The notes: a model not told the origin generated them from the sequence alone. Positions 22,623-40,400 are shown, counted from the first letter of the stretch. The stretch: DNA of 64,000 nt from Deltaproteobacteria bacterium (GCA_033763315.1 JANRKS010000034.1:192001-256000), one strand, 5' to 3'. Made by a program: numbers and translations.

Positions 22623-24110
22623 TCACGGGTAGAGCGCACTTTGATACTGAAGGGGCACCGACACACCAAAAACGCCAAGGCACATCTCGTTTAGGGTTCC
22701 TTCACCAAGTTCTACGTCGACAGGAGCCGTTTTGCCTTGGTCTTCTAAGATATGGGCCAGGGCAGGGTTGTCCAACGAGTTGTCGTAAGTGCAGCGAAAG
22801 TGCAGTTCATCGCCTGGGTAAACGCTGGGCACGTCTGCCAACGGCGCGTCGTAGGTGTAGCCGCGTTGCCAGTCAAAGTCCCACTTCGGCGTTTGCACCA
22901 AACACTCTTGGGAGGGCAGCCCTTGCGTGGGAACGGGACGCACGAGATCAATCTTCATGTCGCGCCCGAGGTAATGCATGTGTGTGCCCACGGTCCACAG
23001 ACGCACGGCGACGCCGTTTTGACGAGCCATGGGGCTGCCGGGGATCTTGAATCGCATCGACTCCACGTGGCTCTTGGCGCCGGCGGGGATGTGGAATCTC
23101 ACCTGACCTCCGTCGTCGTTCGGTCCCGGAAGCAACCCAAATCCATCTCCCCCCGCCGCTGCGATGTTGGGCCTGCCGAAGTTGCCGATGAGTGCCAAGC
23201 GTCCCGCGTTCTTGGGCGGCGTCGTGGACCACCGCAACTGCATCGCCGTGTCGCTGTCTGTTTGTACCGAACCCGTAGGATGGTAGTGAACGTTCATGAT
23301 GATGCGCGAGCCGGCCTTCAACAAGATGGCCACATCGGGCGGCGTGGTGGAGGGCAGGGCGCCTGGAGCCCACGCCCCAATGAGTTCCGCGGCCCCTGAG
23401 ATGCCGGGACCACCGAAGCATGGGTAATACCCCGTCGCTCCCGCTTTGGCCGCTGATTCGCCTTTGGGGTCCACGTAAAGCAACACATGGTGAACGATCG
23501 CTGGGTTGCCAGCCGTGATCTGCGAGCCATCCACCCACACATCTTGAGTCACCTGCGGATCCAAGCTGAAGCACAGGAACTGATCTTCTTTGCCATCAAT
23601 GTTTACGGAGGTGGGAAGCTTGAGGCGCACGTTTGCGTTCTTGAGCTCCAGATCCGGCGCTTGTGGAAGCGCTGCGGCCTGGGATGCGTCGCCGGCGGGC
23701 TTTCCGTCTGCGAGCCATCCCTGCAAGATGGCTCGATCGGCTGCAGACACACGCAAGTCGTCTTTCCAGCCAAAGCGCGGCCGGCATTCAGCCGTTTCCT
23801 GTGCGCTCCATGGCGGCATCTCGCCGGCTTCGACCGCCTCGACTGCCGCTTGTGCCCAACGTTTGGCGCCATCATAGTTTGTGAGATCGAACGGAGCGAT
23901 GCCGTTGGGCTTGTGGCAGCCTGCGCAGCTTCTTTGCAGGATGGGCGCAACGTTTTGGTAGTACGTCATGCCACTGGGTAAAATTAGGCCGTCAACGGCA
24001 GCGTCCGCGACGTTGTTAGAAGGTCTTGTTTCAGAACACCCAGCAACGCACAGCCCAATCAACACGCAATGCCGCATCACTTCGCGCTGATAACGATGAA
24101 CAAGCCGCAT
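22623..24110 (-). CDS. Lipoprotein: c-type heme domain fused to a copper type II (PHM/DBH-like) monooxygenase
   Basis: Lipobox VAGC; CAGCH heme motif and MPPW; HHVLLY, VHYH, THMH and EMC copper-ligand motifs. Confidence 0.82.
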   Translation of the reverse strand: MRLVHRYQREVMRHCVLIGLCVAGCSETRPSNNVADAAVDGLILPSGMTYYQNVAPILQRSCAGCHKPNGIAPFDLTNYDGAKRWAQAAVEAVEAGEMPPWSAQETAECRPRFGWKDDLRVSAADRAILQGWLADGKPAGDASQAAALPQAPDLELKNANVRLKLPTSVNIDGKEDQFLCFSLDPQVTQDVWVDGSQITAGNPAIVHHVLLYVDPKGESAAKAGATGYYPCFGGPGISGAAELIGAWAPGALPSTTPPDVAILLKAGSRIIMNVHYHPTGSVQTDSDTAMQLRWSTTPPKNAGRLALIGNFGRPNIAAAGGDGFGLLPGPNDDGGQVRFHIPAGAKSHVESMRFKIPGSPMARQNGVAVRLWTVGTHMHYLGRDMKIDLVRPVPTQGLPSQECLVQTPKWDFDWQRGYTYDAPLADVPSVYPGDELHFRCTYDNSLDNPALAHILEDQGKTAPVDVELGEGTLNEMCLGVFGVSVPLQYQSALYP

Positions 24111-26782: not shown

Positions 26783-28321
26783 ATGAGCCTGCCTTCCCCT
26801 CTGCTTGCGACGTTCGACCTGCACAAGGCGTATGCCCAACCCGTCCTTAGGGGGGTGAACTGGGCCGTGCGCGCGGGCGAGGTGCACGCGCTGGTGGGTG
26901 AGAACGGGGCGGGAAAAAGCACTTTGGCGCGCGTGGTGTGCGGCATGACCTCGCCAAACGCAGGGCACATGCAACTGGCAGGACGGCCTTGGTCGCCTTC
27001 GTCACGCCGCGACGCCGACGCCCAAGGGGTGCGCATGGTCTTGCAAGAGCTTGGCGCGATCGGCACCTTGACAGTGGCCGAAAATATCTTTCGCGGCCGG
27101 CTGCCCACCAAAGGCGGCGGCCGCTGGGGCGTGATCGATCGCAAGCGGCTTCACGAGGAGGCGCGCGTGTGGATGGCGGCCGTGGGGTTGCAGGATGTGG
27201 CGCCTGACGCGCTGGTAAGTTCGTTGGGCGTGGGTCAAAAGCAACTGGTCGAGATTGCCGGGGCGCTGACGAGCGATGTGAAGCTGCTGATTCTTGATGA
27301 GCCCACAGCGGCGCTGACGGGACCCGAGACACAGAAATTGTTTGAACAGATCCGCCGCCTTTGTGCCGGGGGAACCGCGGTGGTTTACATTTCGCATCGG
27401 CTCGAAGAGTTGCAGGAAATTGCAACGCGTTTGACGGTGTTGCGCGATGGCGTGATGGTGGGAACGCACAACACGGCCGATCTGAGCATCGACAAAATCA
27501 TCAAGTTGATGGCCGGGCGCGCTCTTTCTGCGGATGAGTTTGCGACCGCACAGCATGGCGAAGATGTGGGAATTGAGGTGCGAAATCTACGCGTCAACGG
27601 TGTGGTTCGCGATGTCTCATTTTCGGCCCATAAAGGCGAGATCTTGGGCTTTGCGGGTTTGATGGGCGCTGGTCGCACCGAAACGATGCGCGCGTTGTTC
27701 GGTGCCGACGTGCGCGACGCAGGAGAGGTGTTCATTGATGGCGAGCCCGTCACCATCCGTCACCCGCGCGACGCTGTACGAGCGGGCGTGGCATTGTTGA
27801 CCGAAGATCGTAAGGAGCAGGGCTTGTTGCTTCCGCTTGGGATCACAACCAACGTGAGCGTTGTCAATTTGCCTGCCCTCGCCAAGCACGGCGTGATTGA
27901 CGAAAGCAACGAAGCTTCGGTGGCCGAACGATTCAGGCAAACGCTTGCTGTCAAAGCGCACAATCTATCGCAGCCCGTGGGTGAACTTTCTGGCGGCAAC
28001 CAGCAGAAGGTCCTGATCGCGCGGTGGCTGTTTCGTGATTGCCGCGTGTTGATCTTCGACGAGCCCACGCGTGGCATCGACGTGGGGGCGCGTTTCGAGA
28101 TCTACAAATTGATGCGCGACTTGGCCCACGCCGGCAAAACAATTTTGGTTGTGTCGTCGGATTTGACTGAACTCATGCAGATTTGCCACCGCATCGCCGT
28201 GTTGTCGCGCGGCGAGCTGGTGCAAACGTTTAGGAGAGATACATGGACGCAGGCGTCGATCATGGCAGCGGCATTCTCGGGCTATCTGGGAAAGGCAGCC
28301 ACCGACCAAGCCGAAGCTTAA
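26783..28321 (+). CDS. Monosaccharide ABC transporter ATP-binding protein (RbsA-like, tandem ABC domains)
   Basis: GENGAGKSTL, LDEPTAAL, YISHRLEE, LSGGNQQKV, DEPTRGIDVG. Confidence 0.95.
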   Translation: MSLPSPLLATFDLHKAYAQPVLRGVNWAVRAGEVHALVGENGAGKSTLARVVCGMTSPNAGHMQLAGRPWSPSSRRDADAQGVRMVLQELGAIGTLTVAENIFRGRLPTKGGGRWGVIDRKRLHEEARVWMAAVGLQDVAPDALVSSLGVGQKQLVEIAGALTSDVKLLILDEPTAALTGPETQKLFEQIRRLCAGGTAVVYISHRLEELQEIATRLTVLRDGVMVGTHNTADLSIDKIIKLMAGRALSADEFATAQHGEDVGIEVRNLRVNGVVRDVSFSAHKGEILGFAGLMGAGRTETMRALFGADVRDAGEVFIDGEPVTIRHPRDAVRAGVALLTEDRKEQGLLLPLGITTNVSVVNLPALAKHGVIDESNEASVAERFRQTLAVKAHNLSQPVGELSGGNQQKVLIARWLFRDCRVLIFDEPTRGIDVGARFEIYKLMRDLAHAGKTILVVSSDLTELMQICHRIAVLSRGELVQTFRRDTWTQASIMAAAFSGYLGKAATDQAEA

Positions 28322-28329
28322 GGCCGCGC

Positions 28330-29265
28330 GTGCCCAAGCGTGTGGCGGAGTCACTGCGTCTTGTGGTGGCCTTGGGTTTGTTGTTGTTGGTCTTCTCGGT
28401 GATGGCCGATCACTTCTTCACGAGCCGCACATTCAGCTCGGTGGCGAACCAAATCCCCTCCTTGCTGGTGGTGGCGGTTGGCATGACCTACGTCATCGTT
28501 CTGGGCGGAATCGATCTTTCGGTGGGCTCATTACTGGCGTTGTGCGGGGGCGTGATGGGCGTGGCCACCGCAGGGCTGCACTTGCCGTTGCCGCTGGCTG
28601 TGCTCATGTGTTTGGCGGTGGGCGCGGGCGTGGGCGCGGTGAACGGAATGGTGATGGTGCGCTGGAGGCTGCCCGCTTTCATCGTGACTTTGGGCATGCT
28701 GGAGATCGCTCGCGGTGGTGCCTATTTGGTCACGCATTCGCAAACGCAGTACATCGGGGCGTCCATTGAAAGCATCTCGGAGGTTGCGGTCTTGGGGCTT
28801 TCGTTGCCGTTCTTTTTGGCGCTGGCGTTGGTGTTTGCTGCGCAATGGACTTTGGATCGCACCGTGTTCGGACGTTATGTGGTGGCCACGGGAACGAATG
28901 AAGAGGCGGTGCGGCTCTCGGGCGTCGATACAAGCAAGATTCGCGTGGCCGTCTATACTTTGTGTGGTTTTCTGGCCGGTTTGGGCGCGATCATTCACAC
29001 CGCGCGGTTGGGAGCCGCCGATCCGAATGCGGGCGGAGGGCTTGAGCTGCAAGCGATCGCGGCGGTGGTTGTGGGCGGCACAAGTTTGATGGGCGGGCGA
29101 GGCTCAGTGGTGGGGACGCTGTTTGGTGTTCTGATCATCGCGGTCTTGGACACGGGGCTGGCGCAGGTGGGGGCACAGGAGCCAGCCAAGCGAGTGATCA
29201 CGGGGCTAGTTATTGTGGGAGCCGTCATCTTAGACAACTACCGTCATGGGCGTCGCCATGGTTAA
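28330..29265 (+). CDS. Monosaccharide ABC transporter permease (RbsC-like)
   Basis: GGIDLSVGS, PAFIVTLG, NEEAVRLSG, ELQAIAAVVVGGTSL; start approximate. Confidence 0.93.
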   Translation: MPKRVAESLRLVVALGLLLLVFSVMADHFFTSRTFSSVANQIPSLLVVAVGMTYVIVLGGIDLSVGSLLALCGGVMGVATAGLHLPLPLAVLMCLAVGAGVGAVNGMVMVRWRLPAFIVTLGMLEIARGGAYLVTHSQTQYIGASIESISEVAVLGLSLPFFLALALVFAAQWTLDRTVFGRYVVATGTNEEAVRLSGVDTSKIRVAVYTLCGFLAGLGAIIHTARLGAADPNAGGGLELQAIAAVVVGGTSLMGGRGSVVGTLFGVLIIAVLDTGLAQVGAQEPAKRVITGLVIVGAVILDNYRHGRRHG

Positions 29266-31060
29266 GCACAGAAGCAGGGTCAAACGGCGCACGCTGCTGT
29301 CAGCTGCCGTTGCGGCGATGACAGTCAAAGCGCGAGGCGCGCGGGCGGATTTTCCCGATGACCCCAGCAAAGATCCTGTGCGGCGCTGGGGCGCGGGTGC
29401 CACGCCGCTGTTGGCGGTGAGCCACGTCGGGTTCGTCCCGGGCGTGGGTCAAAAGAGTTTGGTTGTGCGCGCCAACGGGGCCACAGGGCCAACGCGCGTG
29501 GCGTTGTTCGATGCCCACCACAACACACAAAAACCGGGCGAGGAGCCCCTGCGCTGGTTGCCGCTTGCACCGGTGACGTGTGACTTCGGGCCGGCGCAAG
29601 TGGCTGAGCTTGGCAACGTGCCCGAGGGCCGGTACCACCTTTATCTGCCTGGCGCCAATGATGGTGAGTGGTCGCCCACCTTCTTCGTGGGGCCACGCGT
29701 GTGGCGCCGGTTGCTGCATTTGGCGGTCAACTATTACACCGCTCAAAAGTGCGGGGTGGCGGTGCCTGGGGTTCACCCGGCCTGCCATTTGGACGACGCG
29801 ATTGTTGAAGCCACCGGCAAACACGTGGATGCGGTTGGTGGATGGCACGACGCCGGTGATCACGTCAAACAGGCCGTGACGATCCTGAATGCGGTGGCGT
29901 TGGGCACCATGCTGCGCGATCTGCCGGCGTATAGCGGCGATGATCCCGATCGACGTTCCACCCTGGCTTTGCTTCGCCACGGCAACCGCGGGATCTTGGC
30001 GCAACAAGATCCAAGCGACGGTAAGGTGTGGGATCAAATCTTTCAAACGCGTTGGACCGACAACAAGATCGGCACCGCGGACGACCGTCGGCTTGAGACG
30101 CAAAAGACGATCTTCGGCAGCTGCATGTTCGCGGCCGCCCAAGGGTTGGTGTCACAAGCGTTTGCGCAAACGGATCGGGCGTATGCACAACGCTGCCTCA
30201 AAGTGGGCGAGAAAGCTTTGGCCGCGTATGCCGAGCCAAGCGCGCGCACAACGGGCCTTGCGTGGCAGGTGATGGCCGCCGTTGAACTGACACGCGCGGG
30301 CAGCCGCGCCGGCGTAGAGCGCGCGGTGGCCTTGGGGCGCGTCTTGGCCGCGCGCCAATCACATGCGGCCGGCACGAAGGGGTGTTTCCTCGACGCCGAC
30401 AAGACGTCTCCCATTCTCGGCGATCCCGGCGAGTGCGAAGTGACAGGAACGGCGATGCCAGCTTTGGCATTGCTCGCTCTCATTGAGCGCTGGCCCCGGC
30501 ACAGGGACGCGGGCGTGTGGCAAGACGCTGTGGCGGCCTATCTTGAGCACGTTGTGTTTGCGTTGTCGGCGCGCAATGCGTTTGCGGTCTTGCCGCTTTC
30601 CGTTTACACGCAGCCAGCGACCAAGGAAACCTATCGTCGCACCGAAGGGGGCGTGCTTTACCGATACTTCTTCCCGTCGCGCTTGAAGAAATGGTGGCAG
30701 GGCACCAATAGCCATTACGCCGCGCACGCGACGCTGTTGGCCCGTGCCGCGAAGCATCTGCCCGGTGTGGATGGCGGCCGCTGCATCAACCTGGCTTATC
30801 GACAACTTGAATGGATCGTGGGGCGCAATCCCTTTGGCGCTTCTATGATGTCGGGCGTGGGCGCGCGCAATCCATATCCCTATTCTGGGCAGGTGGGCAT
30901 GATCAACGGTGGCGTGATCAACGGCATCGCCGGCAACGATGCTGACGAACCCATCTTAGACACACGCTTCGCGATGGATTGGCGCACGACGGAATACTGG
31001 GGGCCGGGTGTTTCGTATTTGGTGAAAGCCATCACAGCGCTCGAAGGCGTGGCCGTTTAG
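29258..31060 (+). CDS. Tat-exported glycoside hydrolase family 9-like protein
   Basis: KRRTLL twin-arginine signal; CHLDD, GGWHDAGD, WIVGRNPF, C-terminal WRTTEYW. Confidence 0.78.
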   Translation: MVKHRSRVKRRTLLSAAVAAMTVKARGARADFPDDPSKDPVRRWGAGATPLLAVSHVGFVPGVGQKSLVVRANGATGPTRVALFDAHHNTQKPGEEPLRWLPLAPVTCDFGPAQVAELGNVPEGRYHLYLPGANDGEWSPTFFVGPRVWRRLLHLAVNYYTAQKCGVAVPGVHPACHLDDAIVEATGKHVDAVGGWHDAGDHVKQAVTILNAVALGTMLRDLPAYSGDDPDRRSTLALLRHGNRGILAQQDPSDGKVWDQIFQTRWTDNKIGTADDRRLETQKTIFGSCMFAAAQGLVSQAFAQTDRAYAQRCLKVGEKALAAYAEPSARTTGLAWQVMAAVELTRAGSRAGVERAVALGRVLAARQSHAAGTKGCFLDADKTSPILGDPGECEVTGTAMPALALLALIERWPRHRDAGVWQDAVAAYLEHVVFALSARNAFAVLPLSVYTQPATKETYRRTEGGVLYRYFFPSRLKKWWQGTNSHYAAHATLLARAAKHLPGVDGGRCINLAYRQLEWIVGRNPFGASMMSGVGARNPYPYSGQVGMINGGVINGIAGNDADEPILDTRFAMDWRTTEYWGPGVSYLVKAITALEGVAV

Positions 31061-31074
31061 GCGAGTGGCCGGCG

Positions 31075-32016
31075 CTACGTGCGTAGAACTTTTGCGTCGA
31101 TCAAATCGATCGGCGTCTCACGGTCGTCTGGCGTCGAATGCCCTTGCAACAATTCGAGCGCGTATTCGATGCCATACACAGCCAACGCGTCGGCGTGTTG
31201 ATCTGCGGTTGCCAAGACTTCGCCTGCCTTGATCAAACCTTGAACAGCGGCGATGTTGTCGAAGCCCACCACTTTGATGTCCCGCGCCTTTGAGGCGGCT
31301 TTCACCGCCGCGGCCACGCCCAACGCCATGTTGTCGTTGGCCACCATGAAACCCTTGATCTGTGGGTGTTGCGTCATGATCGCGTTTGCGATGTCATGGG
31401 CGCGCCCCATGTCCCAATTCGCGGCTTGCGAGACGAGCAACGTGAGCCCTGCGGCCTTGATGGCGTCCTCAAATCCGAGCCGCCGCGAGATGGCACTGAA
31501 GGCGGTGGGCATTCCTTCGATGATGGCCACGGGCGCGGACGGCGGCAGCTGCTGCGCCAACGCGCGCCCCACCAAGGCGGCGCCCTTGCGGTTGTCGGGC
31601 CCAACGTAGGGAATCTTCAGACGCCGTGCGGATAACACGTTGGCGTCGAGACGATCCACGATGTTTACCACCACCACGCCCGCACGCATGGCGCGCCGGC
31701 ATGAGGCGATGAGAGCGCGCGCGTCCGCGGGCACAATCACGAGCGCGTCCGCGCCCATGGCCACCGTTTGATCAACGAGATCACTTTGGCGGGCGACATC
31801 CTGTTCGTCCTTAATGCCGTTGATGATGAGCTCGTATTGCCGCGCGTGCTGTGCTTGATGCTTGCGCGCGCCTTCGGCCATCGTTGTGTAAAACTCGTTG
31901 GCGAGCGACTTCATGACTAAGCCAATGCGACGAGGCGCGCCTGCCTTCGGTTGCCGGGTGTGGCAGCCCAAAAGAGCAAGCGCCGGGGCGCTGTACAAAA
32001 GCGTTCGTCGCAACAT
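31075..32016 (-). CDS. Sugar ABC transporter substrate-binding lipoprotein (RbsB-like)
   Basis: MLRRTLL...LLGC signal; LVMKSLANEFY, VGPDNRKG, ANDNMALG, VVGFDN. Confidence 0.92.
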   Translation of the reverse strand: MLRRTLLYSAPALALLGCHTRQPKAGAPRRIGLVMKSLANEFYTTMAEGARKHQAQHARQYELIINGIKDEQDVARQSDLVDQTVAMGADALVIVPADARALIASCRRAMRAGVVVVNIVDRLDANVLSARRLKIPYVGPDNRKGAALVGRALAQQLPPSAPVAIIEGMPTAFSAISRRLGFEDAIKAAGLTLLVSQAANWDMGRAHDIANAIMTQHPQIKGFMVANDNMALGVAAAVKAASKARDIKVVGFDNIAAVQGLIKAGEVLATADQHADALAVYGIEYALELLQGHSTPDDRETPIDLIDAKVLRT

Positions 32017-32020
32017 TGGC

Positions 32021-33010
32021 TTATACGGAATTGTCCTGCAGGCCGCGCCGCACGGCCAACGCGACGCCGCCCAACGTCCCCGCTTGGTCGCCGAGCAGCG
32101 ACGGTTCAACGCGGATGTCGTCGGTGGGAAACATGCCAACGCGTTCTTTGATCACTTGCCGCACCGTCGCGAACAGGGGCTCGCCCAAACCTGCCACGCC
32201 GCCGCCGATGACGATCATTTCGGGATGGATTGTGGTGATCGTGTTGGCGATGCCGATGCCCAAACACTGCGCGGCGCGCACGAGCGACGCTTGCACGCGA
32301 TCATCGCCCGCGGCCGCGGCCTCGCCCAACAGTTTCACGCTGATTTTGCCAAAGTCGCCGCCCACCATGTCGTAAAGGCGGGGGGCTTGGCCGGAAAGCA
32401 AGAGCCTCACACCTTCGGCTGTGAGGGCGGGGCCCGAGATGTAGAGTTCAAGGCAGCCGCGGTTGCCGCAGCCGCATCGCAAGCCGTTGGGATCAACCGT
32501 TTGGTGGCCAAGCTCGCCCACCGATCCCGAACGGCCGAGCACAAGCTTACCGTCCATCACGATGCCGCCCCCAACCCCGGTGCCAAGCGCGTAAAAGGCA
32601 AAGTTGCGCACGTGTTTGCCATGGCCATAAGCCAATTCCCCCAACGCGGCCATTCGGACGTCGTTGAGCAGATAAACGTCGCAGCCAAGCCGTGGGGCCA
32701 GCCACTGGCGGACAGGCACGTTGCGCCACTGTGTGGTGAGGTTTGGCAAGAACAGCGTTTCGCCGGTCTGCAGGTTCGCCATACCGGGCACACCGATGCC
32801 CAACGCCGCAGGACGCTGCCCCACCTTTTGAGCCAACGATTCGATCAAATCGCCGATGCGCGCCACCACGGCTTCGGGGCCTTCATATGAAAGCGTGGGC
32901 ATGGTGCCCCGCGCGGCGATGCGGCCCTCTTCGTCCGCCAACACCGCAGCGATGTTTGTGCCGCCGAGATCGGCGCTGGCGAACAGCGGGCGTGATGCAG
33001 CAAGCGTCAT
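32021..33010 (-). CDS. ROK family sugar kinase
   Basis: DLGGTN, NDVRMAALGE, LGTGVGGG, GELGHQ, CGCGNRGCLE; no N-terminal HTH. Confidence 0.93.
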   Translation of the reverse strand: MTLAASRPLFASADLGGTNIAAVLADEEGRIAARGTMPTLSYEGPEAVVARIGDLIESLAQKVGQRPAALGIGVPGMANLQTGETLFLPNLTTQWRNVPVRQWLAPRLGCDVYLLNDVRMAALGELAYGHGKHVRNFAFYALGTGVGGGIVMDGKLVLGRSGSVGELGHQTVDPNGLRCGCGNRGCLELYISGPALTAEGVRLLLSGQAPRLYDMVGGDFGKISVKLLGEAAAAGDDRVQASLVRAAQCLGIGIANTITTIHPEMIVIGGGVAGLGEPLFATVRQVIKERVGMFPTDDIRVEPSLLGDQAGTLGGVALAVRRGLQDNSV

Positions 33011-33012
33011 GG

Positions 33013-33864
33013 TCACACACCCATCGGGTGCCACACGGTTTTCGTTTCAAGAAAGTCCGCGATCGACCACAGCGAAAGTTCCAAGGCCGCGGCCTCATCT
33101 TTGATAATCACGCGCTTGACGTTTTGACTGGCCGCTTGGGCCAACGCCACCCGCGCTTCGTCGTCAACGCCCGTGATGTCGATGGCATTGACGTCCATGT
33201 GCGCCGCCAAGCCCGGTGTGATCTCGGATTTGATGCCGCTGATGATGTTCACCACACCCGCGGGCACATCTGACGTCGCTAAGATTTCGCCCAAGGTGAT
33301 CGCAGCCAAAGGCCGCGTTTCCGATGGAATCACGACCACCGTGTTGCCGCACACAATCGCCGGCAAAACGCGCGCAAGCAACCCCTGCAACGCTGGTGTT
33401 TCAGGTGCCACCACACCGACCACCCCTGTGGCTTCGGGGAAGCTGAAGTTGAAGAATGGCCCTGCCACTGGATTCACGGTGCCGAGCACCATATGCACTT
33501 TATCGGCCCAGCCAGCGTAATACACGCACGTGTCAACGCAGGCTTCCACCTCGGCGCGCGCTTGTTTATCGGTAAGGCCCATCGCCATCAACTCTTCCGC
33601 AAGCTCGGCGCTGCGCGATTCGAGGCCCTCGGCAAGCCGGTACAGGATCTGCCCTCGGTTAAGCGTGGTGCGAGACGACCAATCGGCAAACGCTTTGCGC
33701 GCAGCTACCACGGCGTTGCGGATGTCTTTGCGCGAGCCTTTGCATGCGTTGGCCAGCAACTTGTCTCCCTTGGGTGAGCGAATGGCGTAATGACGGGCGG
33801 ATTCAGTGCGTGGGAACTGCCCACCGATGAACAACTTATAGGTCTTGCGAACTTGAAGGCGCAT
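33013..33864 (-). CDS. Short aldehyde dehydrogenase-like subunit lacking the catalytic domain
   Basis: KTYKLFIGGQFPRTES, YYAGWADK, ending ETKTVWHPMGV; no ELGGKS or catalytic Cys region. Confidence 0.88.
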   Translation of the reverse strand: MRLQVRKTYKLFIGGQFPRTESARHYAIRSPKGDKLLANACKGSRKDIRNAVVAARKAFADWSSRTTLNRGQILYRLAEGLESRSAELAEELMAMGLTDKQARAEVEACVDTCVYYAGWADKVHMVLGTVNPVAGPFFNFSFPEATGVVGVVAPETPALQGLLARVLPAIVCGNTVVVIPSETRPLAAITLGEILATSDVPAGVVNIISGIKSEITPGLAAHMDVNAIDITGVDDEARVALAQAASQNVKRVIIKDEAAALELSLWSIADFLETKTVWHPMGV

Positions 33865-33879
33865 GGGTGTTTCCTGCCG

Positions 33880-35406
33880 TTATGAAAGTCGTACGTAAGG
33901 GTGTAGGCCCGCCATGCCGCCTTCGCGACCGAAGCCCGATTCCTTGTAGCCGCCAAACGGCGACGTTGGATCAAACTTGTTGTACGTGTTGGCCCAAATG
34001 ACGCCAGCGCGCAGTTTGGAAGCGATCTCGAGGATGCGTGAGCCCTTGTCCGTCCACACGCCTGCCGCCAAACCGTAGGGGCTATTGTTGGCGCGCGTGA
34101 GCGCTTCTTCGGGTGTGCGGAAGGTGAGCACCGAAAGCACCGGCCCAAAGATCTCCTCTTGAGCGATGCGGCTAGCTTGGGCCACACCTGTGAGCAACGA
34201 CGGGCGGTAGAAGAAGCCCTTGTCAGGCAGGGGGCACGAAGGCTGGTAAAGGTCGGCGCCTTCATCCACGCCCACTTGCACCAAGCTGCTGATCTTATCT
34301 AACTGAGCACGCGAGTTGATCGCGCCGATGTCGGTGTTTTTGTCCAGCGGATCACCCACGCGCAGCGTGGTCATGCGCGCTTTGAGTTTGGCAAGAAATG
34401 CATCGGCGATGCCTTCCTGCAAGAACAAGCGTGAGCCCGCACAACATACGTGGCCTTGGTTGAAGTAGATGCCGTTGATCACGCCTTCCACAGCCTGATC
34501 CAGTGGTGCATCGTCAAAGACGATGTTGGCGCTTTTGCCGCCCAATTCCAAGGTCAATCGCTTGCCCGTACCAGCGATCGCCTTTTGAATCAATTTGCCA
34601 ACTTCAGTTGAACCCGTGAAGGCCACCTTATTGATGTCGCCATGCTGAACGAGCGCCGCGCCTGTGGCAGGGCCGCCGGTCAGAATGTTCACAACGCCTG
34701 GAGGTAGATCGGCCTCTTGAATGACCTCTGCCAATAGGAGAGCCGTCAAAGGCGTGGTCTCCGCGGGCTTGAGCACCACCGTGTTGCCCGTGGCCAAGGC
34801 GGGCGCCAACTTCCACGCGGCCATCAACAACGGAAAGTTCCATGGGATCACTTGGCCTGCCACACCCAGGGGGCTCACAGTGCGTGCAGGGAACGCGTAA
34901 GGCAACTTGTCGGCCCAGCCGGCGTAGTGAAAGAAGTGGGCGTTTGCCAGCGGAATGTCGACGTCGCGCGATTCCTTGATGGGCTTGCCGCCGTTCATCG
35001 TTTCAACCAACATGAAGCGCTTGGCTTTTTCTTGGATGATGCGTGCGATGCGGAAAATGTATTTGCCGCGTTCAGCGCCGGGCATCTTCGACCAGTGTTT
35101 GTCGAACGCTTTGCGTGCCGACGCCACGGCCGTGGCCACGTCGGCGTCGCTGGCTTGCGCCACTTCGGCCAGCGGCTTTTCGGTGGCGGGGTTGATCGTG
35201 GTGAAGTAGGCGCCCGACTGTGGCGCGACGAACTTACCGTCGATGAATAAGTCGTAGCGCGGCGCGATCTGCGCGTCCGCGGTTGACTCAAGAGACGGGG
35301 CGTAGCTCCACATCTCACCTGCTGCACCGGGTGCCACACGTGCCAGGGTGGCCGCGTCGAGTGCAGTCTTGCCGTTGCTGCCGTTGTGCGTTTGTTTATC
35401 AAGCAT
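33880..35406 (-). CDS. NAD-dependent aldehyde dehydrogenase (probable acetaldehyde dehydrogenase)
   Basis: IPWNFPL, KPAETTP, FTGSTEVG, LELGGKS, FNQGHVCCAGS, EEIFGPV, PFGGYKESG. Confidence 0.95.
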   Translation of the reverse strand: MLDKQTHNGSNGKTALDAATLARVAPGAAGEMWSYAPSLESTADAQIAPRYDLFIDGKFVAPQSGAYFTTINPATEKPLAEVAQASDADVATAVASARKAFDKHWSKMPGAERGKYIFRIARIIQEKAKRFMLVETMNGGKPIKESRDVDIPLANAHFFHYAGWADKLPYAFPARTVSPLGVAGQVIPWNFPLLMAAWKLAPALATGNTVVLKPAETTPLTALLLAEVIQEADLPPGVVNILTGGPATGAALVQHGDINKVAFTGSTEVGKLIQKAIAGTGKRLTLELGGKSANIVFDDAPLDQAVEGVINGIYFNQGHVCCAGSRLFLQEGIADAFLAKLKARMTTLRVGDPLDKNTDIGAINSRAQLDKISSLVQVGVDEGADLYQPSCPLPDKGFFYRPSLLTGVAQASRIAQEEIFGPVLSVLTFRTPEEALTRANNSPYGLAAGVWTDKGSRILEIASKLRAGVIWANTYNKFDPTSPFGGYKESGFGREGGMAGLHPYVRLS

Positions 35407-35433
35407 GAAGAAGCTCCGGGGGTGAAGTGATAG

Positions 35434-36405
35434 CTAGTCTTTGGAAAAGTAGTCGGGCGATTGGTACGCGCCTGTGGCCTGCGTGTGAATCTGCATCAGC
35501 AGATCGTTGACCAACGTGCTGGCGCCAAAGCGAAACAGATCCGGCGTCATCCAGGGGGCGCCCAGGGTTTCATAAACCAGCACCAAGTAGGCGAGGGCCG
35601 TCTTTGTGTCAGCGATGTTGCCGGCGGGCTTCATACCAATCATGCGGCCTGTGTAGCCGTAGAAGTCGCGGACGGCTTCCAACATCAACAAGGTGATCGG
35701 CGCCGTGGATTTGCCGTCGATCTTGCCTGTTGATGTTTTGATGAAATCGCCGCCCGCGCACATCGCGATGAAAGACGCTTGGCGAATGTTGTCGAACGTG
35801 CCGAGCTCGCCTGTCTCAAGGATGACCTTGAGGTGCGCGTCGCCGCAGGCTTCCTTCACCGCGGCGATCTCGTCGTAGACCGCTTGGTATTGGCCCGAGT
35901 GAAAGGCGCCACGGCTGATCACCATGTCGATTTCTTGGGCACCTGCGTCCACCGCTTGCCGCGTTTCCTCAAGCTTGATCGCCAGCGACGTTTGCCCGCT
36001 GGGAAAGCCCGTGGCCACCGAAGCCGTTTTCACTGTGCTGCCGGTGAGGAACTTGCGGACCAGCGGCACCATGGCCGGATACACGCAAACGGCAGCGCAG
36101 GATGGCATCGACCGGTCGAGCGGGTCGGGAGCGATCGCTTTGCGACACAACGACTCCACCTTACCGCGTGAGTCTTGGCCTTCGAGCGTGGTGATGTCCA
36201 CCATGCTGATGGCCAGCTTCATGCCCCAGATCTTGGATTGCTTCTTGATCGAGCGCTTCGACAGCGAAGCGGCACGTTCCTTCACAGCCACAGCGTCCAC
36301 GGGGGTGGACCAATTGAGCGCTTGCGTTAAGCCGATGTTCGGCAAAGGTGGCGTTTGGCTGTGGGGAATCACGGCTTTTCCGGCTGTGGTTTGAAGCTCA
36401 ATCAT
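35434..36405 (-). CDS. deoC: Deoxyribose-phosphate aldolase
   Basis: DITTLEG, AVCVYP, EIDMVI, LKVILETGEL, DFIKTSTGK, KPAG, RFGAS. Confidence 0.93.
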   Translation of the reverse strand: MIELQTTAGKAVIPHSQTPPLPNIGLTQALNWSTPVDAVAVKERAASLSKRSIKKQSKIWGMKLAISMVDITTLEGQDSRGKVESLCRKAIAPDPLDRSMPSCAAVCVYPAMVPLVRKFLTGSTVKTASVATGFPSGQTSLAIKLEETRQAVDAGAQEIDMVISRGAFHSGQYQAVYDEIAAVKEACGDAHLKVILETGELGTFDNIRQASFIAMCAGGDFIKTSTGKIDGKSTAPITLLMLEAVRDFYGYTGRMIGMKPAGNIADTKTALAYLVLVYETLGAPWMTPDLFRFGASTLVNDLLMQIHTQATGAYQSPDYFSKD

Positions 36406-36518
36406 GAAAAGGCCCTTCGCAGCGGGGTTAGGTACGACGATGTGGCTAAGCCACGTGTCCTGTTATGCGGTAGCGGACGTCACCAGTCAACGACGAGGTA
36501 ACGACGGTTCTCAAAAAG

Positions 36519-36534
36519 TGGCACCTGCGGTGCA
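36519..36534 (+). promoter_or_regulatory. Putative sigma54 (-24/-12) promoter
   Basis: TGGCAC-ctgcg-GTGCA with exact GG-N10-GC spacing, about 50 nt upstream of ATG 36587. Confidence 0.55.
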
Positions 36535-36586
36535 CGTGCGCGCTGAGCAAGCACGATGGCTTGGGCTTTGCAGCCTTGGATTCGCT

Positions 36587-37174
36587 ATGAAAAACGCCAG
36601 CTTTGGGTTTGCAATCTTCGCCTTGGCCGCTCTGGTTGCCTGTGGCAGTGACGACGGCGAAGGCGATTCTCCCTCGTCGCCGAGCGATCCGGGGCCGGTG
36701 CAGGGGCCAGTGGCCGCGACGGGCGCGTCGATTGAGCGTGGCCGTCCCGAGACGACCGTGGCCGGAACGAACCCAGGTGCAGGTGGGTCGGGTGAACCTG
36801 CACCCTCGGCCAACGGAGGCAACGGTGCCTCTGGCACAGGCCCCGCGTCGGACGCTGCGGCCAACAATCCCCCGCCGGCTGGCACCCCCCCGCCTGCCAC
36901 CAATCCGCCCCCCGCCAACAATCCACAGCCCGTGAGCGATCCGCCGCCGGGCACCAACGAATCGGACCCCGCGTGCGCGGGTAAAGCGGAAGGGGACGTG
37001 TGCGGCACTCCGTCTTGTCAAAGCGAGACGCACACAGTGCAAGGGCGCTGCGATAAGGAGCTCACCTGCGTTTACGTCAAGATCAAGTGTGACAAGTCGT
37101 GTGAGGGCGGGGTGTGCGTTGATGAGAAGCCCGGCAATGGCAAGGACGCGAGCGGCGGAAAGTCCAAGCCGTAA
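36587..37174 (+). CDS. Lipoprotein with Pro/Gly-rich linker and 8-Cys C-terminal domain
   Basis: MKNASFGFAIFALAALVAC lipobox; PPPA repeats; Cys-rich tail. Confidence 0.8.
   Translation: MKNASFGFAIFALAALVACGSDDGEGDSPSSPSDPGPVQGPVAATGASIERGRPETTVAGTNPGAGGSGEPAPSANGGNGASGTGPASDAAANNPPPAGTPPPATNPPPANNPQPVSDPPPGTNESDPACAGKAEGDVCGTPSCQSETHTVQGRCDKELTCVYVKIKCDKSCEGGVCVDEKPGNGKDASGGKSKP
36860..36931 (+). repeat. Four imperfect 18-bp tandem repeats encoding AxxPPP-like units
   Basis: gccaacaatcccccgccg / gctggcacccccccgcct / gccaccaatccgcccccc / gccaacaatccacagccc. Confidence 0.75.
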
Positions 37175-37460
37175 TGGCGCGGAAACGAAACGTGCGGCTT
37201 GGTTGTATGTCCGTGAAGTGGAACGCAAAGGTCGATCCCCAGCCTGCCAACCACTGAACGTGGTATGGGTGCGGGTTGCCGCACTTTCTCGAACCGCAAT
37301 GTCAGCAAGTTGAAGTCTGCGCTCCTGTGCAGATTGTCTGCAAGCCCAGTCCCTCTATCTGCAGAGAGCGGCTGGCCGGTGAACGCAAAAGCGAAGCGGC
37401 CAGGCTTTGAGAGCCACTCGCTTGGGTGTTGGGGCGCTTCTTGCACGTGCTGGGGGCGTT

Positions 37461-40400
37461 TTGGTACCCAAAGATTCCCAATCTGGCCTTCAAGCCGCTG
37501 TAGCACGCGCTCCACTGGAAGCGCCCTTTCGTTCAGAACTTTTCAGCGTTAGCCAACTCGAACACCACGCTCGAAGCTTGGCCGCCACTCATGAGGTGGG
37601 GCGCGTGGGCCGCGAGGCGGAGGATCTTTTGGGTCGCCTCGGCACAAACGCGCGCGTGCTCGCGCAGGCGTATTCGCAGGTTAGCGAGGCCATCACTCAG
37701 GGCAAGCGCATCACGCCCGCCGCTGAGTGGCTGCTGGATAACTATCACCTCATTGAAGAACAGGTGAGAACGGCGCGCCGGCACTTGCCGCGTGGTTACG
37801 TTCGTGAGCTGCCGTGTTTAACGAATTCAACATCGCCGGGGCGTCCGCGCGTCTACGACATCGCCATTGAACTTATCTCGCACGCCGATGGGCGCGTGGA
37901 TATGGAAGGGGTGCAAGCGTTCATCACGGCCTATCAAACCGTGACGCCGCTTGGATTAGGGGAGTTGTGGGCCATCCCCATCATGCTGCGTCTGGCGCTC
38001 ATCGAGAACCTTCGCCGCGTCTCTGTCGATGTGACGGCGGGGCAAAATGAACGCGCGCGCGCGTGCCTGTGGGCTGATCAGATGATCGCGATGGCCGCAA
38101 AAGAGCCGGGCAAGGTGGTGCTCGTGTTGGCGGACATGGTGCGTGACGTGACGTCACCCAGCAACGCCTTTGCCGCGGAGCTTGCGAGCCGCGTGCAGGC
38201 GCGCGGCCCCAGCCTGGCCATCGCGATGTCATGGCTTGAACAGCGCTTGGCCGAGCACGGGCAAACCGTGGAGCAGGTGTTTCAACTGACCAGTCAAACG
38301 CAAGCGTCAGCGCAAGTGTCTTTTGGCAACAGCATAGGCAGTTTGCGCTTTCTCGGTGCCACCGATTGGCGAGAGTTCGTTGAGGCCACCAGCGTGGTTG
38401 AGCACGCCTTGCGCACCGATCCCGCCGGTGTTTACCCGCAGATGGATTTCGCAACCCGCGATCGCTATCGGCACGTGGTGGAGCAAATCGCGAAGGCGAG
38501 CGATGTCACGCAAGCACAAGTGGCCTCTTGTGTTCTAGAGGCAGCGCGTGAACGCGATGCCGCTGGCGACAAGCGTGGTGCACACGTTGGCCATTTCTTG
38601 ATAGGCGAAGGGCACCTGCTTGTAGAGCGAGCCGTGTCTGCTCACTGGCCGTGGCTTCGCCGCGTAGGAAGCGTGTGCGAGCGGTTGCCCTTGCTGGTGT
38701 ACCTTGGTGCCATCGCGGCCACCACGGCCATTGCCACAAGCCCGTTGGTTTGGTGGGCCAAAGAACGCGGCTTCGATCGCGTGAGCTTGATCGCATGGTC
38801 CTTGTTGATCGCGTTGTGTGCCAGCCAAACCGCGTTGGCGTTGGTGCACTGGGCGGCCACAATTCTCGTCAAACCGCGGGTCTTGCCACGGTTGGATTTC
38901 TCCGAAGGCATTCCCCCGCAACACCGCACGGTGGTGGCGGTCCCCGCGCTGTTGACCGATCTGCGCGAAGTGGACGAGCTGCTCGAAGGTTTGGAAGTGC
39001 GCATGTTGGCCAACCGGGACAACAATGTTGTGTTCGCGTTGCTCACAGATCTTCGCGACGCCGCGGCTGAATCGGTGCAGGGTGATGCCGACGTCGTTGA
39101 GCGCGCGCGCGCGGGCATAACGACGCTCAATGAACGTTACGCAGGCCAAGCGGTGTTCTTCCTTTACCATCGCGATCGTCGCTTTAACCCGCGTGAAGGC
39201 GTGTGGATGGGATGGGAACGCAAGCGGGGAAAGCTTGAACAGTTTAACGAGGCCCTGCGCGGCGATGACAGTGGTTTCGCCCTCATCGTGGGGCCCAAAG
39301 CACAGATGGCCAACATAAAGTACGTGGTGGCGCTCGACGCCGACACACAGTTGCCGCGCGACGCTGCACGCTTGTTGGTGGGCACCCTGGCACACCCCTT
39401 GAACCGTCCTGTGTTTGATGACGCCGGGCGCGTGGTTTCGGGTTACAGTATTTTGCAACCGGGCCTTGGCATCACCATGCCCAGCGCGCGGCGATCGCTG
39501 TTTTCACGTTTGTTTGCCGGCGAATCAGGCATCGATCCGTATACGCGGGCGGTCTCCGACATTTACCAAGATCTGTTTGACGAAGGATCGTTTGTTGGCA
39601 AGGGAATCTATGATGTGGATGCGCTTCGCAAGGCGCTACGCAACCGTTTTCCAGAGAACCGCATCCTGAGCCACGACCTGCTTGAGGGCGCTCATGCACG
39701 CGCCGGCCTGGTGAGTGATGTGGTGCTGTTCGAGGACTATCCTTATGCCCACGCCGCGGACGTCAGCCGTCGCTCACGTTGGATCCGCGGCGATTGGCAA
39801 ATTACGCCTTGGTTGTGGCCGCGCGTGCCGTCCGCAGCATCTGGGCAACGTCTGCGCAATCCGTTGTCGGGCCTTTCACGTTGGAAGCTGTTAGACAACC
39901 TTCGCCGCAGCCTCTTGCCTGTGGCGTTGTTGGCGGCGCTGGTGATTGGCTGGCTGCTTCCGGGCGCGGCGCTGCTGCACACGCTCATAGTCGTTTCCAT
40001 CTTTGCGTTGCCGGGCTTGCTTACGGCGGCCACCGATCTGGCCAGACGCCCCAGCGACCTTCCGTTCAACTACCACGCGCTGAGCATCGCGCGCGCCCTC
40101 GCTCGGCAACTTCTGCGCGAGCTGTTCAACTTGGCGATGTTGCCTTACGACGCCTTTATAAGCATCGACGCCATCACGCGTACGGGCTTTCGTGTGTTGG
40201 TGAGCCACAAGCGCCTTTTGCAATGGCGCACGGCTAGCGACGCGCAACGCTCAGCCCACGCGGACGTCGCGGGTACCTACGTGTCCATGTGGAGTTTGCC
40301 GATCACCGCCATGGTTTTGGCCTTTGTGATCTTGCAACGCAACCCCGAGGCTTTGCCGGTGGCCGGATGTTTGTTGGCCCTGTGGATGTTCGCGCCTGCA

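Follow-up and report, generated by a model that had tools for sequence, protein, structure and literature searches.

The locus described here occupies positions 26,783 to 36,405 of a 64,000-nucleotide stretch of a Deltaproteobacteria bacterium genome (GCA_033763315.1, JANRKS010000034.1:192001-256000); we call this whole stretch the window. Open reading frame (ORF) calls and Pfam and NCBIfam searches identified eight genes in two convergent operons (Table 1). The plus-strand operon encodes the ATPase and the permease of an ATP-binding cassette (ABC) importer, followed by a protein of glycoside hydrolase family 9 (GH9). The minus-strand operon is transcribed in the order DeoC, aldehyde dehydrogenase (ALDH), a shorter ALDH-like protein (ALDH'), a ROK-family sugar kinase and a solute-binding protein. 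A preliminary description of this DNA had proposed an undescribed catabolic system for deoxy sugars. The tight packing, content, order and strands that it gave for the two operons were all confirmed, as was the split of the importer (binding protein on the minus strand, ATPase and permease on the plus strand), and the cluster proved to be one physical unit. Judged from its sequence, the combined cluster may represent a new uptake route for free deoxyribose.

Table 1. Genes of the cluster, with positions counted from the first nucleotide of the window
Feature	Position	Strand	Principal match
ABC importer ATPase, two ABC domains (CUT2 / RbsA-AlsA-XylG type)	26783-28321	+	PF00005 in two stretches
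ABC importer permease, RbsC type (BPD_transp_2)	28243-29265	+	PF02653, 157 bits
GH9-family protein, Tat-exported (predicted), N-terminal Ig-like (CelD_N-type) region	29246-31060	+	PF00759, 98.3 bits
Lipoprotein solute-binding protein, RbsB/AlsB class (Peripla_BP_4)	31075-32016	-	PF13407, 162 bits
ROK-family sugar kinase	32021-33034	-	PF00480, 222 bits
Free-standing ALDH16 C-terminal domain (predicted), 283 aa (ALDH')	33013-33864	-	Pfam profile positions 6-234 of 461 only
ALDH16 catalytic subunit (predicted), full length, 508 aa	33880-35406	-	aligns to 6MVR residues 10-476
Long-form DeoC, deoxyribose-phosphate aldolase (DERA)	35434-36405	-	TIGR00126, 174.9 bits, cut-off 117.3

The genes on each strand are closely packed. 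By their coordinates, 27 nt separate deoC from the ALDH gene and 15 nt the ALDH gene from the ALDH' gene; the ALDH' stop overlaps the start of the ROK gene (an ATG at 33013, or a GTG at 33034 with an overlap of 22 nt), and 4 nt lie between the ROK stop and the ATG of the binding-protein gene at 32016, whose ORF extends to 32139. With gaps of 27, 15, about -1 and 4 nt among the five minus-strand genes, the ROK kinase and the binding protein are expected to be made together with DeoC and the ALDH proteins. On the plus strand the permease starts somewhere in 28243-28400 and the GH9 start overlaps the permease end by 8-20 nt, and the ends of the two operons are 14 nt apart. We infer that the genes of the cluster are co-expressed. 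No other binding-protein gene flanks the ATPase-permease pair. A scan of the locus for promoter-like sites returned none and for terminator-like sites 16 against 15.1 expected, and was uninformative.

DeoC is predicted to be a bona fide DERA of a long form, with about 60 additional N-terminal residues. It exceeded the cut-off of the DeoC equivalog model (175.7 bits in the whole-genome search) and aligned with the E. coli DERA structure 1JCL at E 4e-45, with the lysines of FIKTSTGK and KPAG and the aspartate of EIDMV in register, the latter matching the E. coli stretch EVDVV. We take the class I DERA residues to be the Schiff-base lysine K167, K201 and D102 in E. coli numbering. One glycine of the phosphate loop is replaced by Asn (KPAGN). 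DeoC had first been called atypical; this holds for its length only, since the protein passes a curated equivalog threshold with its catalytic residues aligned.

The best solved relative of the 508-aa ALDH was 6MVR (568 bits, versus 430 for the next ALDH), and the catalytic motifs were aligned: Asn in PWNFP, Glu in LELGGK and Cys in VCCAGSR. The structure 6MVR is the ALDH16 of Loktanella sp. (PMC12041015, PMC8160307). In the portions of these two papers that were available, the extra C-terminal domain of ALDH16 is described as resembling an NAD-binding domain, nucleotide-free and dimer-forming, the activity reported is of the hexanal type only and no physiological role is given; the Asn/Glu/Cys triad described for the bacterial enzyme in the available part of PMC12041015 matches the motifs seen here. 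Residues 7-282 of the 283-aa ALDH' aligned end to end with the 6MVR/6MVU segment 501-766 (domain E 1.6e-41). This short protein belongs to a family conserved at about 283-290 aa, and in one relative (G034) ALDH and ALDH' are fused in a single 810-aa frame, which argues for a two-gene ALDH16 and not a broken gene. Our assignment, made by homology, is that ALDH and ALDH' constitute a two-gene (split) ALDH16, the family catalogued as cd07111, in which ALDH' is Rossmann-like and has no catalytic domain. The "split ALDH" of the preliminary description, one ALDH cut in two, gives way to a complete catalytic ALDH with a separate ALDH16 C-domain protein. A pseudogene reading of the 283-aa gene was considered and ruled out by its conserved family, its match to the ALDH16 C-domain and the fusion in relatives.

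Fused forms may also exist in further genomes. About 18 strong matches to the ALDH16 C-domain lie in frames of 719-1278 aa, which leaves room for a fused ALDH16 (for example in G201, G346, G390, G076, G143, G391, G276, G034, G416 and G306), and in two of these the frames are perhaps long enough for further fusions.

Together, DeoC, ALDH and ALDH' form an autonomous and widespread module. Of the 401 genomes sampled in the phylum, 104 had an ALDH' homologue (E<=1e-30); the weak end of this list includes ordinary ALDHs. We retrieved about 20 kb around 40 ALDH' homologues and, with two found earlier, compared 42 loci. The gene order DeoC-ALDH-ALDH' was kept in 39 of them; two of the others were cut by contig ends and one had no DeoC match. 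No homologue of the ROK kinase, the binding protein, the ATPase, the permease or the GH9 protein was detected at any of the 42 loci (E<=1e-8). Flanking genes were annotated with Pfam at 23 loci (135 ORFs; nine ORFs above 900 aa and two small ones were left out). A pyrimidine-nucleoside (thymidine) phosphorylase adjoined the trio at four of these, a NupC-type nucleoside transporter at two and an acetyl-CoA synthetase at one, and neither a sugar kinase nor an ABC importer was found in the flanks of any of the 23. The phosphorylase and NupC neighbours indicate that the trio belongs to the catabolism of deoxynucleosides and deoxyribose phosphate. The steady neighbourhood with DeoC suggests acetaldehyde as the substrate of this predicted ALDH16; our literature search returned no link between ALDH16 and deoxyribose, deoC or DERA.

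What sets this locus apart is what was added to the trio, namely the ROK kinase, a ribose-type importer and the GH9 protein. The assignment of the kinase to ROK and not to the PfkB family was upheld, with no PF00294 match in the window. The protein has the motifs of ROK kinases (GELGH for ExGH, CGCGNRGCLE for the zinc motif CxCGxxGCxE). It scored below the cut-offs of the ROK-glucokinase subfamily (TIGR00744, 185.4 vs 260.35 bits) and of AlsK (127 bits, cut-off 253), and it matched the D-allose kinase 3HTV weakly (E 2e-15). The best match in the 401-genome sample had 39% identity.

Metagenomes were scanned with ROK peptides as the only seed, which yielded 25 loci. DeoC lay beside or near the ROK gene at 12 of them, and two more ended less than 180 bp after it. 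The adjacency took three forms. Group 1 (60-62% identity) has the order FKBP-ROK-DeoC(short)-Rpe-BamD, and the wider 57-62% cluster that includes it is from Terriglobia wherever named. Group 2 (43-44%) combines ROK with Gfo/Idh/MocA, a xylose-isomerase-like TIM barrel, DeoC and DeoR, and is also annotated in a Chloroflexota plasmid (CP069395.1). In group 3 (33%), GntR-ROK and DeoC stand tail to tail, and one such locus also has a CUT2 importer. The three ROK-adjacent DeoCs tested, one per clade, exceeded the DeoC equivalog cut-off (191-221 bits); ROK-adjacent DeoCs elsewhere are short forms, versus the long form in this locus. At least three lineages besides this one therefore show ROK-DeoC adjacency. 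A quick maximum-likelihood tree (IQ-TREE) united the ROK of the window and those ROKs in one clade (SH-aLRT 99) and placed 20 myxobacterial ROKs in a separate one. The clade counts 19 members, of which 12 are near DeoC, two are cut by contig ends and five have no DeoC. As a control, DeoC was found within 1.5 kb of none of 29 ROK homologues (30-38% identity) in the 401-genome sample. In a small sample of five acidobacterial genomes (G436-G440, reached via loci L048, L050, L051, L058 and L080), it was near one of two ROK orthologues and none of eight paralogous ROKs. Members of the clade share a signature, NDVR and GHQT, beside the sugar-binding motifs, where solved ROKs (two glucokinases and human ManNAc kinase) have instead ND(A/G)N and GH followed by a hydrophobic residue.

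The row of FKBP isomerase, ROK, short DeoC, ribulose-phosphate 3-epimerase family protein and BamD/YfiO was seen at L237, L239, L240, L241, L244 and L271 (G436:C12), and the ROK-DeoC gap in such Terriglobia-like contigs is about 40-160 nt. Modules of DeoC, Gfo/Idh/MocA, TIM barrel, GntR/DeoR and ROK occur at L250:1150-12206, L254:157-12256 and L263 (CP069395.1 119031-131709). This module is present twice on one Chloroflexota plasmid and looks like an uncharacterised sugar pathway ending in DERA.

The importer has the complete CUT2 composition of a two-domain ATPase, a BPD_transp_2 permease and a Peripla_BP_4 binding protein. It matched NCBIfam models for ribose and related sugars, all below cut-off: AlsA 480 (cut-off 772), XylG 476 and RbsA 444 (cut-off 745) bits for the ATPase, ribose permease (RbsC) 230 bits (cut-off 398) for the permease, and RbsB 121 (cut-off 337) and AlsB 135 (cut-off 335) bits for the binding protein. 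The nearest in-genome paralogues of all three parts lie in one operon on contig C2, of the rbsBACK type, with identities of 50% (ATPase), 63% (permease) and 56% (binding protein); the kinase of this rbsB-A-C-K operon passes the ribokinase equivalog (301.9 vs 299.65 bits). This shared paralogy identifies the ATPase, permease and binding protein of the cluster as a cognate set derived from a ribose-type importer, although they are encoded on opposite strands. No homologue of the binding protein at E<=1e-50 was found elsewhere in 400 sampled genomes of the phylum, and both RbsB-like copies (G000:C2:381869-386181; window 26783-32016) are confined to this genome among the 401. Our data suggest that the RbsB-like binding-protein family was gained from outside the phylum and then duplicated. 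A plasmid search gave as best match to the binding protein a 46% identical sequence on a Ralstonia megaplasmid, in a row of solute-binding protein, ATPase and permease (unannotated record).

The binding protein carries a lipoprotein-type signal (LLGC) and the GH9 protein a twin-arginine (Tat) motif, so that both should act outside the cytoplasm. The best solved relative of the binding protein was 4YLE (267 bits), for which we found no literature, followed by 5DTE, 2IOY (Thermoanaerobacter ribose-binding protein), AlsB and RbsB. We take the ribose contacts of E. coli RbsB to be N13, F15, F16, D89, R90, R141, F164, N190, D215 and Q235. As read from alignments, the binding protein retains all these positions, with Tyr for F16 and Trp for F164; at the D89 position, the C2 paralogue and 4YLE have Asn. 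Such RbsB-like contacts point to a ribo-configured pentose or hexose and not to glucose, and do not single out a deoxy sugar.

The GH9 protein, well above the Pfam gathering threshold of 27.7 bits, belongs to a subfamily that is large, well conserved and centred on Acidobacteriota at about 40% identity (closest 38-42%), and for which we found no characterised member. Homologues carry PF02927. The twin-arginine motif, a Cys/His cluster and GGWHDAGD are invariant in 21 aligned sequences; an invariant C-terminal Glu, E583 (TxEYW), is the candidate catalytic acid, the Pfam match ending at profile position 382 of 444. Solved relatives (3X17, 3H7L, 5DGQ) matched weakly, at E 1e-13 to 1e-10. A single-sequence scan of genome contigs gave no match, and an alignment-based scan gave 79 loci, the five closest of which we treated as orthologues. 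Neither DeoC nor ROK stands beside the gene at any of these five loci, all in Acidobacteriota; the neighbours are GH3, GH39-like, GH79C-like and BNR/sortilin-type proteins, and in a Ca. Solibacter metagenome-assembled genome (L049) the orthologue follows a GH3 gene and faces a divergent CUT2 ABC importer. The GH9-like gene was not found in the genomes of 40 relatives, weak paralogue matches aside. To our knowledge, all GH9 activities are on beta-1,4-gluco-type bonds. Periplasmic trimming of a beta-linked glycan is the most likely role of the protein.

The cluster as a whole is conserved over a short evolutionary distance. The closest homologues of the GH9 protein (73%), ALDH' (89%) and ROK (80%) each lie on a sole contig of 24,087 bp, and for both ALDH' (93%) and ROK (84%) there is a further homologue whose longest contig measures 7,550 bp; equal size suggests that each contig is shared, and linkage would then be kept in very close relatives only. 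Two same-genus genomes have neither a long DeoC nor a GH9-like gene, and DNA comparison with them matched flanking genes and an rbs-like operon only. Nearest homologues are from Acidobacteriota for ROK, GH9 and ALDH' and of Burkholderiales type for the importer, and these differing sources make the cluster look assembled from pieces. The best explanation of these sequence comparisons is a lineage-specific mosaic around a conserved core. The neighbourhood of deoC, ROK, ribose-type importer and GH9 named in the preliminary description was recovered in part: the ROK clade recurs with DeoC, whereas ROK, ABC importer and GH9 genes are at none of the 42 trio loci and DeoC or ROK at none of the five GH9 loci.

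Whole-genome searches bore out that the window has no PfkB, deoB, deoA-type or PNP-type (purine-nucleoside phosphorylase) gene. The genome encodes seven PfkB proteins (PF00294), of which only the one on C2 passes the ribokinase model; the nearest PfkB gene is about 2.5 kb before the window start. A second, short-form DeoC is on contig C29 (203 bits). Other glucokinase candidates are one Glk-type glucokinase and four more ROK genes. Two observations that the preliminary description had named as telling against its model were each made in part: canonical deo genes do occur elsewhere (a deoB-deoA-PNP row on contig C17 and the second DeoC), and the two operons are unlinked at 42 of 42 trio loci, though probably linked in very close relatives.

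Taken together, the cluster may encode the import of free 2-deoxyribose or a close ribo-sugar, its phosphorylation by the ROK kinase, its cleavage by DeoC and the oxidation of the resulting acetaldehyde by ALDH16, a reading to which we give a probability of roughly 0.45. A ribo-configured sugar would be bound in the periplasm, the best candidate being free 2-deoxy-D-ribose from degraded DNA. Uptake would be by the duplicated CUT2 importer of ribose type; the ROK kinase would then phosphorylate the terminal hydroxymethyl group of the sugar, DeoC would cleave the product, and ALDH16 would detoxify the aldehyde. In the core, the long-form DeoC would split 2-deoxyribose 5-phosphate into glyceraldehyde 3-phosphate and acetaldehyde, and ALDH16 would oxidise acetaldehyde to acetate. 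The ROK and binding-protein genes would have been joined in this lineage to the 3' end of the trio operon, with translational coupling. The GH9 gene would be co-transcribed with those of the ATPase and permease; its link to a deoxy-sugar route could not be shown. The identity of the sugar and the substrate and product of the kinase are those that the sequences make plausible. The pathway of import, phosphorylation and cleavage first sketched for this DNA thus stands in part: the split importer and the DeoC-associated ROK clade speak for it, whereas its glycosidase step and its "split ALDH" found no support. We propose, with the odds against us, that the DeoC-associated ROK clade is a non-orthologous, ROK-fold kinase of 2-deoxyribose or another 2-deoxy sugar.

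Several observations weigh against this pathway. All hydrogen-bonding residues of RbsB are kept, and ribose or allose would fit no worse than a 2-deoxy sugar. The cluster has no DeoR/RbsR-type regulator, and the presence of the GH9 gene in the transporter operon is not explained by the model. All canonical hexokinase-type ROK motifs are intact, and we know of no ROK kinase that phosphorylates a pentose. The largest DeoC-adjacent ROK group (57-62%, Terriglobia) has a housekeeping-looking context and represents one lineage only.

The remaining adverse points also favour an alternative, that two unrelated modules merely share a gene order: GH9, importer and ROK as a unit for beta-glycan trimming, hexose uptake and gluco- or hexokinase activity, and DeoC-ALDH16 as an ordinary module of deoxynucleoside catabolism, fed by DeoB, DeoA and PNP from elsewhere in the genome. 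In 39 of the 42 loci the trio stands in the same order with no kinase or importer, it adjoins a nucleoside phosphorylase at four annotated loci, and the contiguous row of deoB, thymidine-phosphorylase (deoA) and purine-nucleoside-phosphorylase genes at C17:57495-60789 means that a canonical supply of deoxyribose 5-phosphate exists in the genome. GH9 is a beta-glycanase family, the GH9 orthologue in L049 is placed after GH3 and opposite a CUT2 importer, the best solved ROK relatives are glucokinases (2QM1, 3VGK), and the JGI label of the orthologues is glucokinase. Among the five acidobacterial genomes, G436 and G438 have a ROK orthologue but lack Glk (PF02685), Glk is intact in G440 and broken in G439, neither of which has a ROK orthologue, and G437 has neither gene; this complementary pattern, in four of the five, fits a plain glucokinase. 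However, the binding protein resembles RbsB/AlsB, keeps the ribose-contact positions and is not of the glucose/galactose type. The importer needs it, and yet it is encoded behind deoC and ALDH16 with a stop/start overlap, which ties its expression to the aldolase operon. ROK-DeoC adjacency is repeated in three or more further lineages with other DeoC types and did not occur among control ROKs, and the genome already has Glk and other ROKs. We consider two unrelated modules somewhat unlikely, but the main rival to the deoxyribose reading.

An allose-type system, as in the E. coli als operon, acting on D-allose or on a 2-deoxy-ribo-hexose, is improbable. ROK kinases usually act on hexoses, alsBAC-alsK is the one described case known to us in which a ROK kinase goes with an RbsB-like ABC importer, and AlsA, AlsB and AlsK are among the top or notable NCBIfam matches. 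In a bolder version, DeoC would cleave 2-deoxy-hexose 6-phosphate into acetaldehyde and erythrose 4-phosphate; DERA does take aldehydes besides glyceraldehyde 3-phosphate in synthesis, according to the available portion of the literature. Yet the Als scores are far under their cut-offs, the match to the allose kinase 3HTV is weak, AlsE- and RpiB-type genes are lacking from the cluster, the score of DeoC exceeds the cut-off of the deoxyribose-phosphate aldolase equivalog, and we know of no natural source of 2-deoxy-ribo-hexose polymers. Last, the full model of the preliminary description, in which it is the periplasmic GH9 protein that frees a 2-deoxy or unusual sugar for import, phosphorylation and cleavage, is very improbable: the GH9 gene does overlap the permease gene, encodes a Tat signal and has its 73% homologue on a contig equal in size to that of the ROK and ALDH' homologues, but its orthologues sit among beta-glycan genes with no DeoC or ROK, the activities of the family known to us are beta-1,4-gluco-type, and the gene was not found in the 40 relatives beyond weak paralogue matches, which leaves the release of a deoxy sugar by this enzyme unsupported.

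If the DeoC-associated ROK clade is such a 2-deoxy-sugar kinase, the cluster would constitute the first ABC route for free deoxyribose that depends on a binding protein, feeding an animal-type DERA and a two-gene ALDH16, and the use of a ROK-fold kinase and an ABC importer for this sugar would be a case of non-orthologous displacement. A putatively predatory myxobacterium could then feed on the sugar in the DNA of its prey. This pairing of kinase and aldolase would also form the core of uncharacterised Gfo/Idh/MocA, TIM-barrel, kinase and DERA loci in Chloroflexota and other anaerobes, and pathway prediction would improve for soil bacteria living on the DNA of dead cells. The locus also offers another natural context for ALDH16; no physiological role has been assigned to this family, and its human member has a link to gout. 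If instead the modules are unrelated, this would be an ordinary accessory sugar cluster behind a known operon.

The surroundings of the cluster include three further genes of note. About 1 kb from deoC, positions 37407-46061 (+) encode a 2884-aa protein in which two GH94 supersandwich domains are combined with one catalytic GH94 and one glucoamylase-like domain, resembling a cyclic beta-1,2-glucan synthase-type enzyme; part of this gene is 74% identical at the DNA level in a same-genus genome (G002). Between it and deoC, a divergent ORF at 36404-37174 (+), with a probable start at about 36590, has no Pfam or NCBIfam match; after an internal Met come a signal of lipoprotein type, a stretch rich in Pro and a C-terminus rich in Cys. 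A 495-aa protein at 22623-24110 (-) matched the two domains of copper type II ascorbate-dependent monooxygenases weakly, below threshold (E 2e-4 and 6e-4); the family is unusual in bacteria.

Compared with known systems, the cluster is closest in its proposed logic to the deoK-deoC route for free deoxyribose. According to the available portion of PMC6365646, this route is present in Salmonella (deoQKPX plus deoC), Paraburkholderia bryophila and Burkholderia phytofirmans, and it is the only kinase/aldolase route for the free sugar described there, with a PfkB kinase. We found no ROK-family deoxyribokinase and no deoxyribose ABC importer described in the literature searched, the coverage of which excludes most subscription journals. 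Both systems would import deoxyribose, phosphorylate it with ATP to deoxyribose 5-phosphate, cleave it with DeoC and remove acetaldehyde. The kinase is a PfkB protein there and a ROK protein here, and uptake is by the DeoP permease there and by what we predict to be a binding-protein-dependent CUT2 ABC importer here; the present cluster also has the predicted two-gene ALDH16 for the aldehyde step and an extra GH9 gene, and no DeoQ/DeoR-type regulator.

With the E. coli rbsDACBK and alsBACEK operons, the cluster has in common a CUT2 importer (two-domain ATPase, one permease, RbsB/AlsB-class binding protein) and a locus that includes a sugar kinase. Like this one, AlsK is a ROK protein, whereas the kinase here is nearer to glucokinases than to AlsK. 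Equivalog scores are all below cut-off, the genes are not in one row but split between two convergent operons, and RbsD, AlsE and RpiB have no counterpart in the cluster. Our kinase is of the same fold family as the ROK glucokinases of E. faecalis (2QM1) and S. griseus (3VGK) and has their ExGH motif, zinc motif and N-D catalytic pair; it differs in its TIGR00744 score (185 vs 260), in the clade-specific NDVR and GHQT and in its genomic association with DeoC.

Among ALDH16 proteins, which include human ALDH16A1, the Loktanella enzyme (6MVR/6MVS/6MVT/6MVU) has counterparts of both members of the present pair, and the pair has the catalytic motifs of this bacterial enzyme; the Loktanella protein is a single polypeptide, whereas here the two parts are encoded by separate genes. 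Finally, CelD of C. thermocellum (1CLC), Cel9A of Alicyclobacillus (3EZ8) and the Vibrio/Photobacterium exo-glucosaminidase-type GH9 enzymes 3H7L and 5DGQ have in common with our GH9 protein an N-terminal Ig-like region, the GH9 barrel, the DAGD motif and a nearby Cys/His cluster. Relative to these Ig-domain GH9 enzymes, the protein encoded here is very distant (best E 1e-13), is predicted to be exported by Tat and forms a subfamily of its own.

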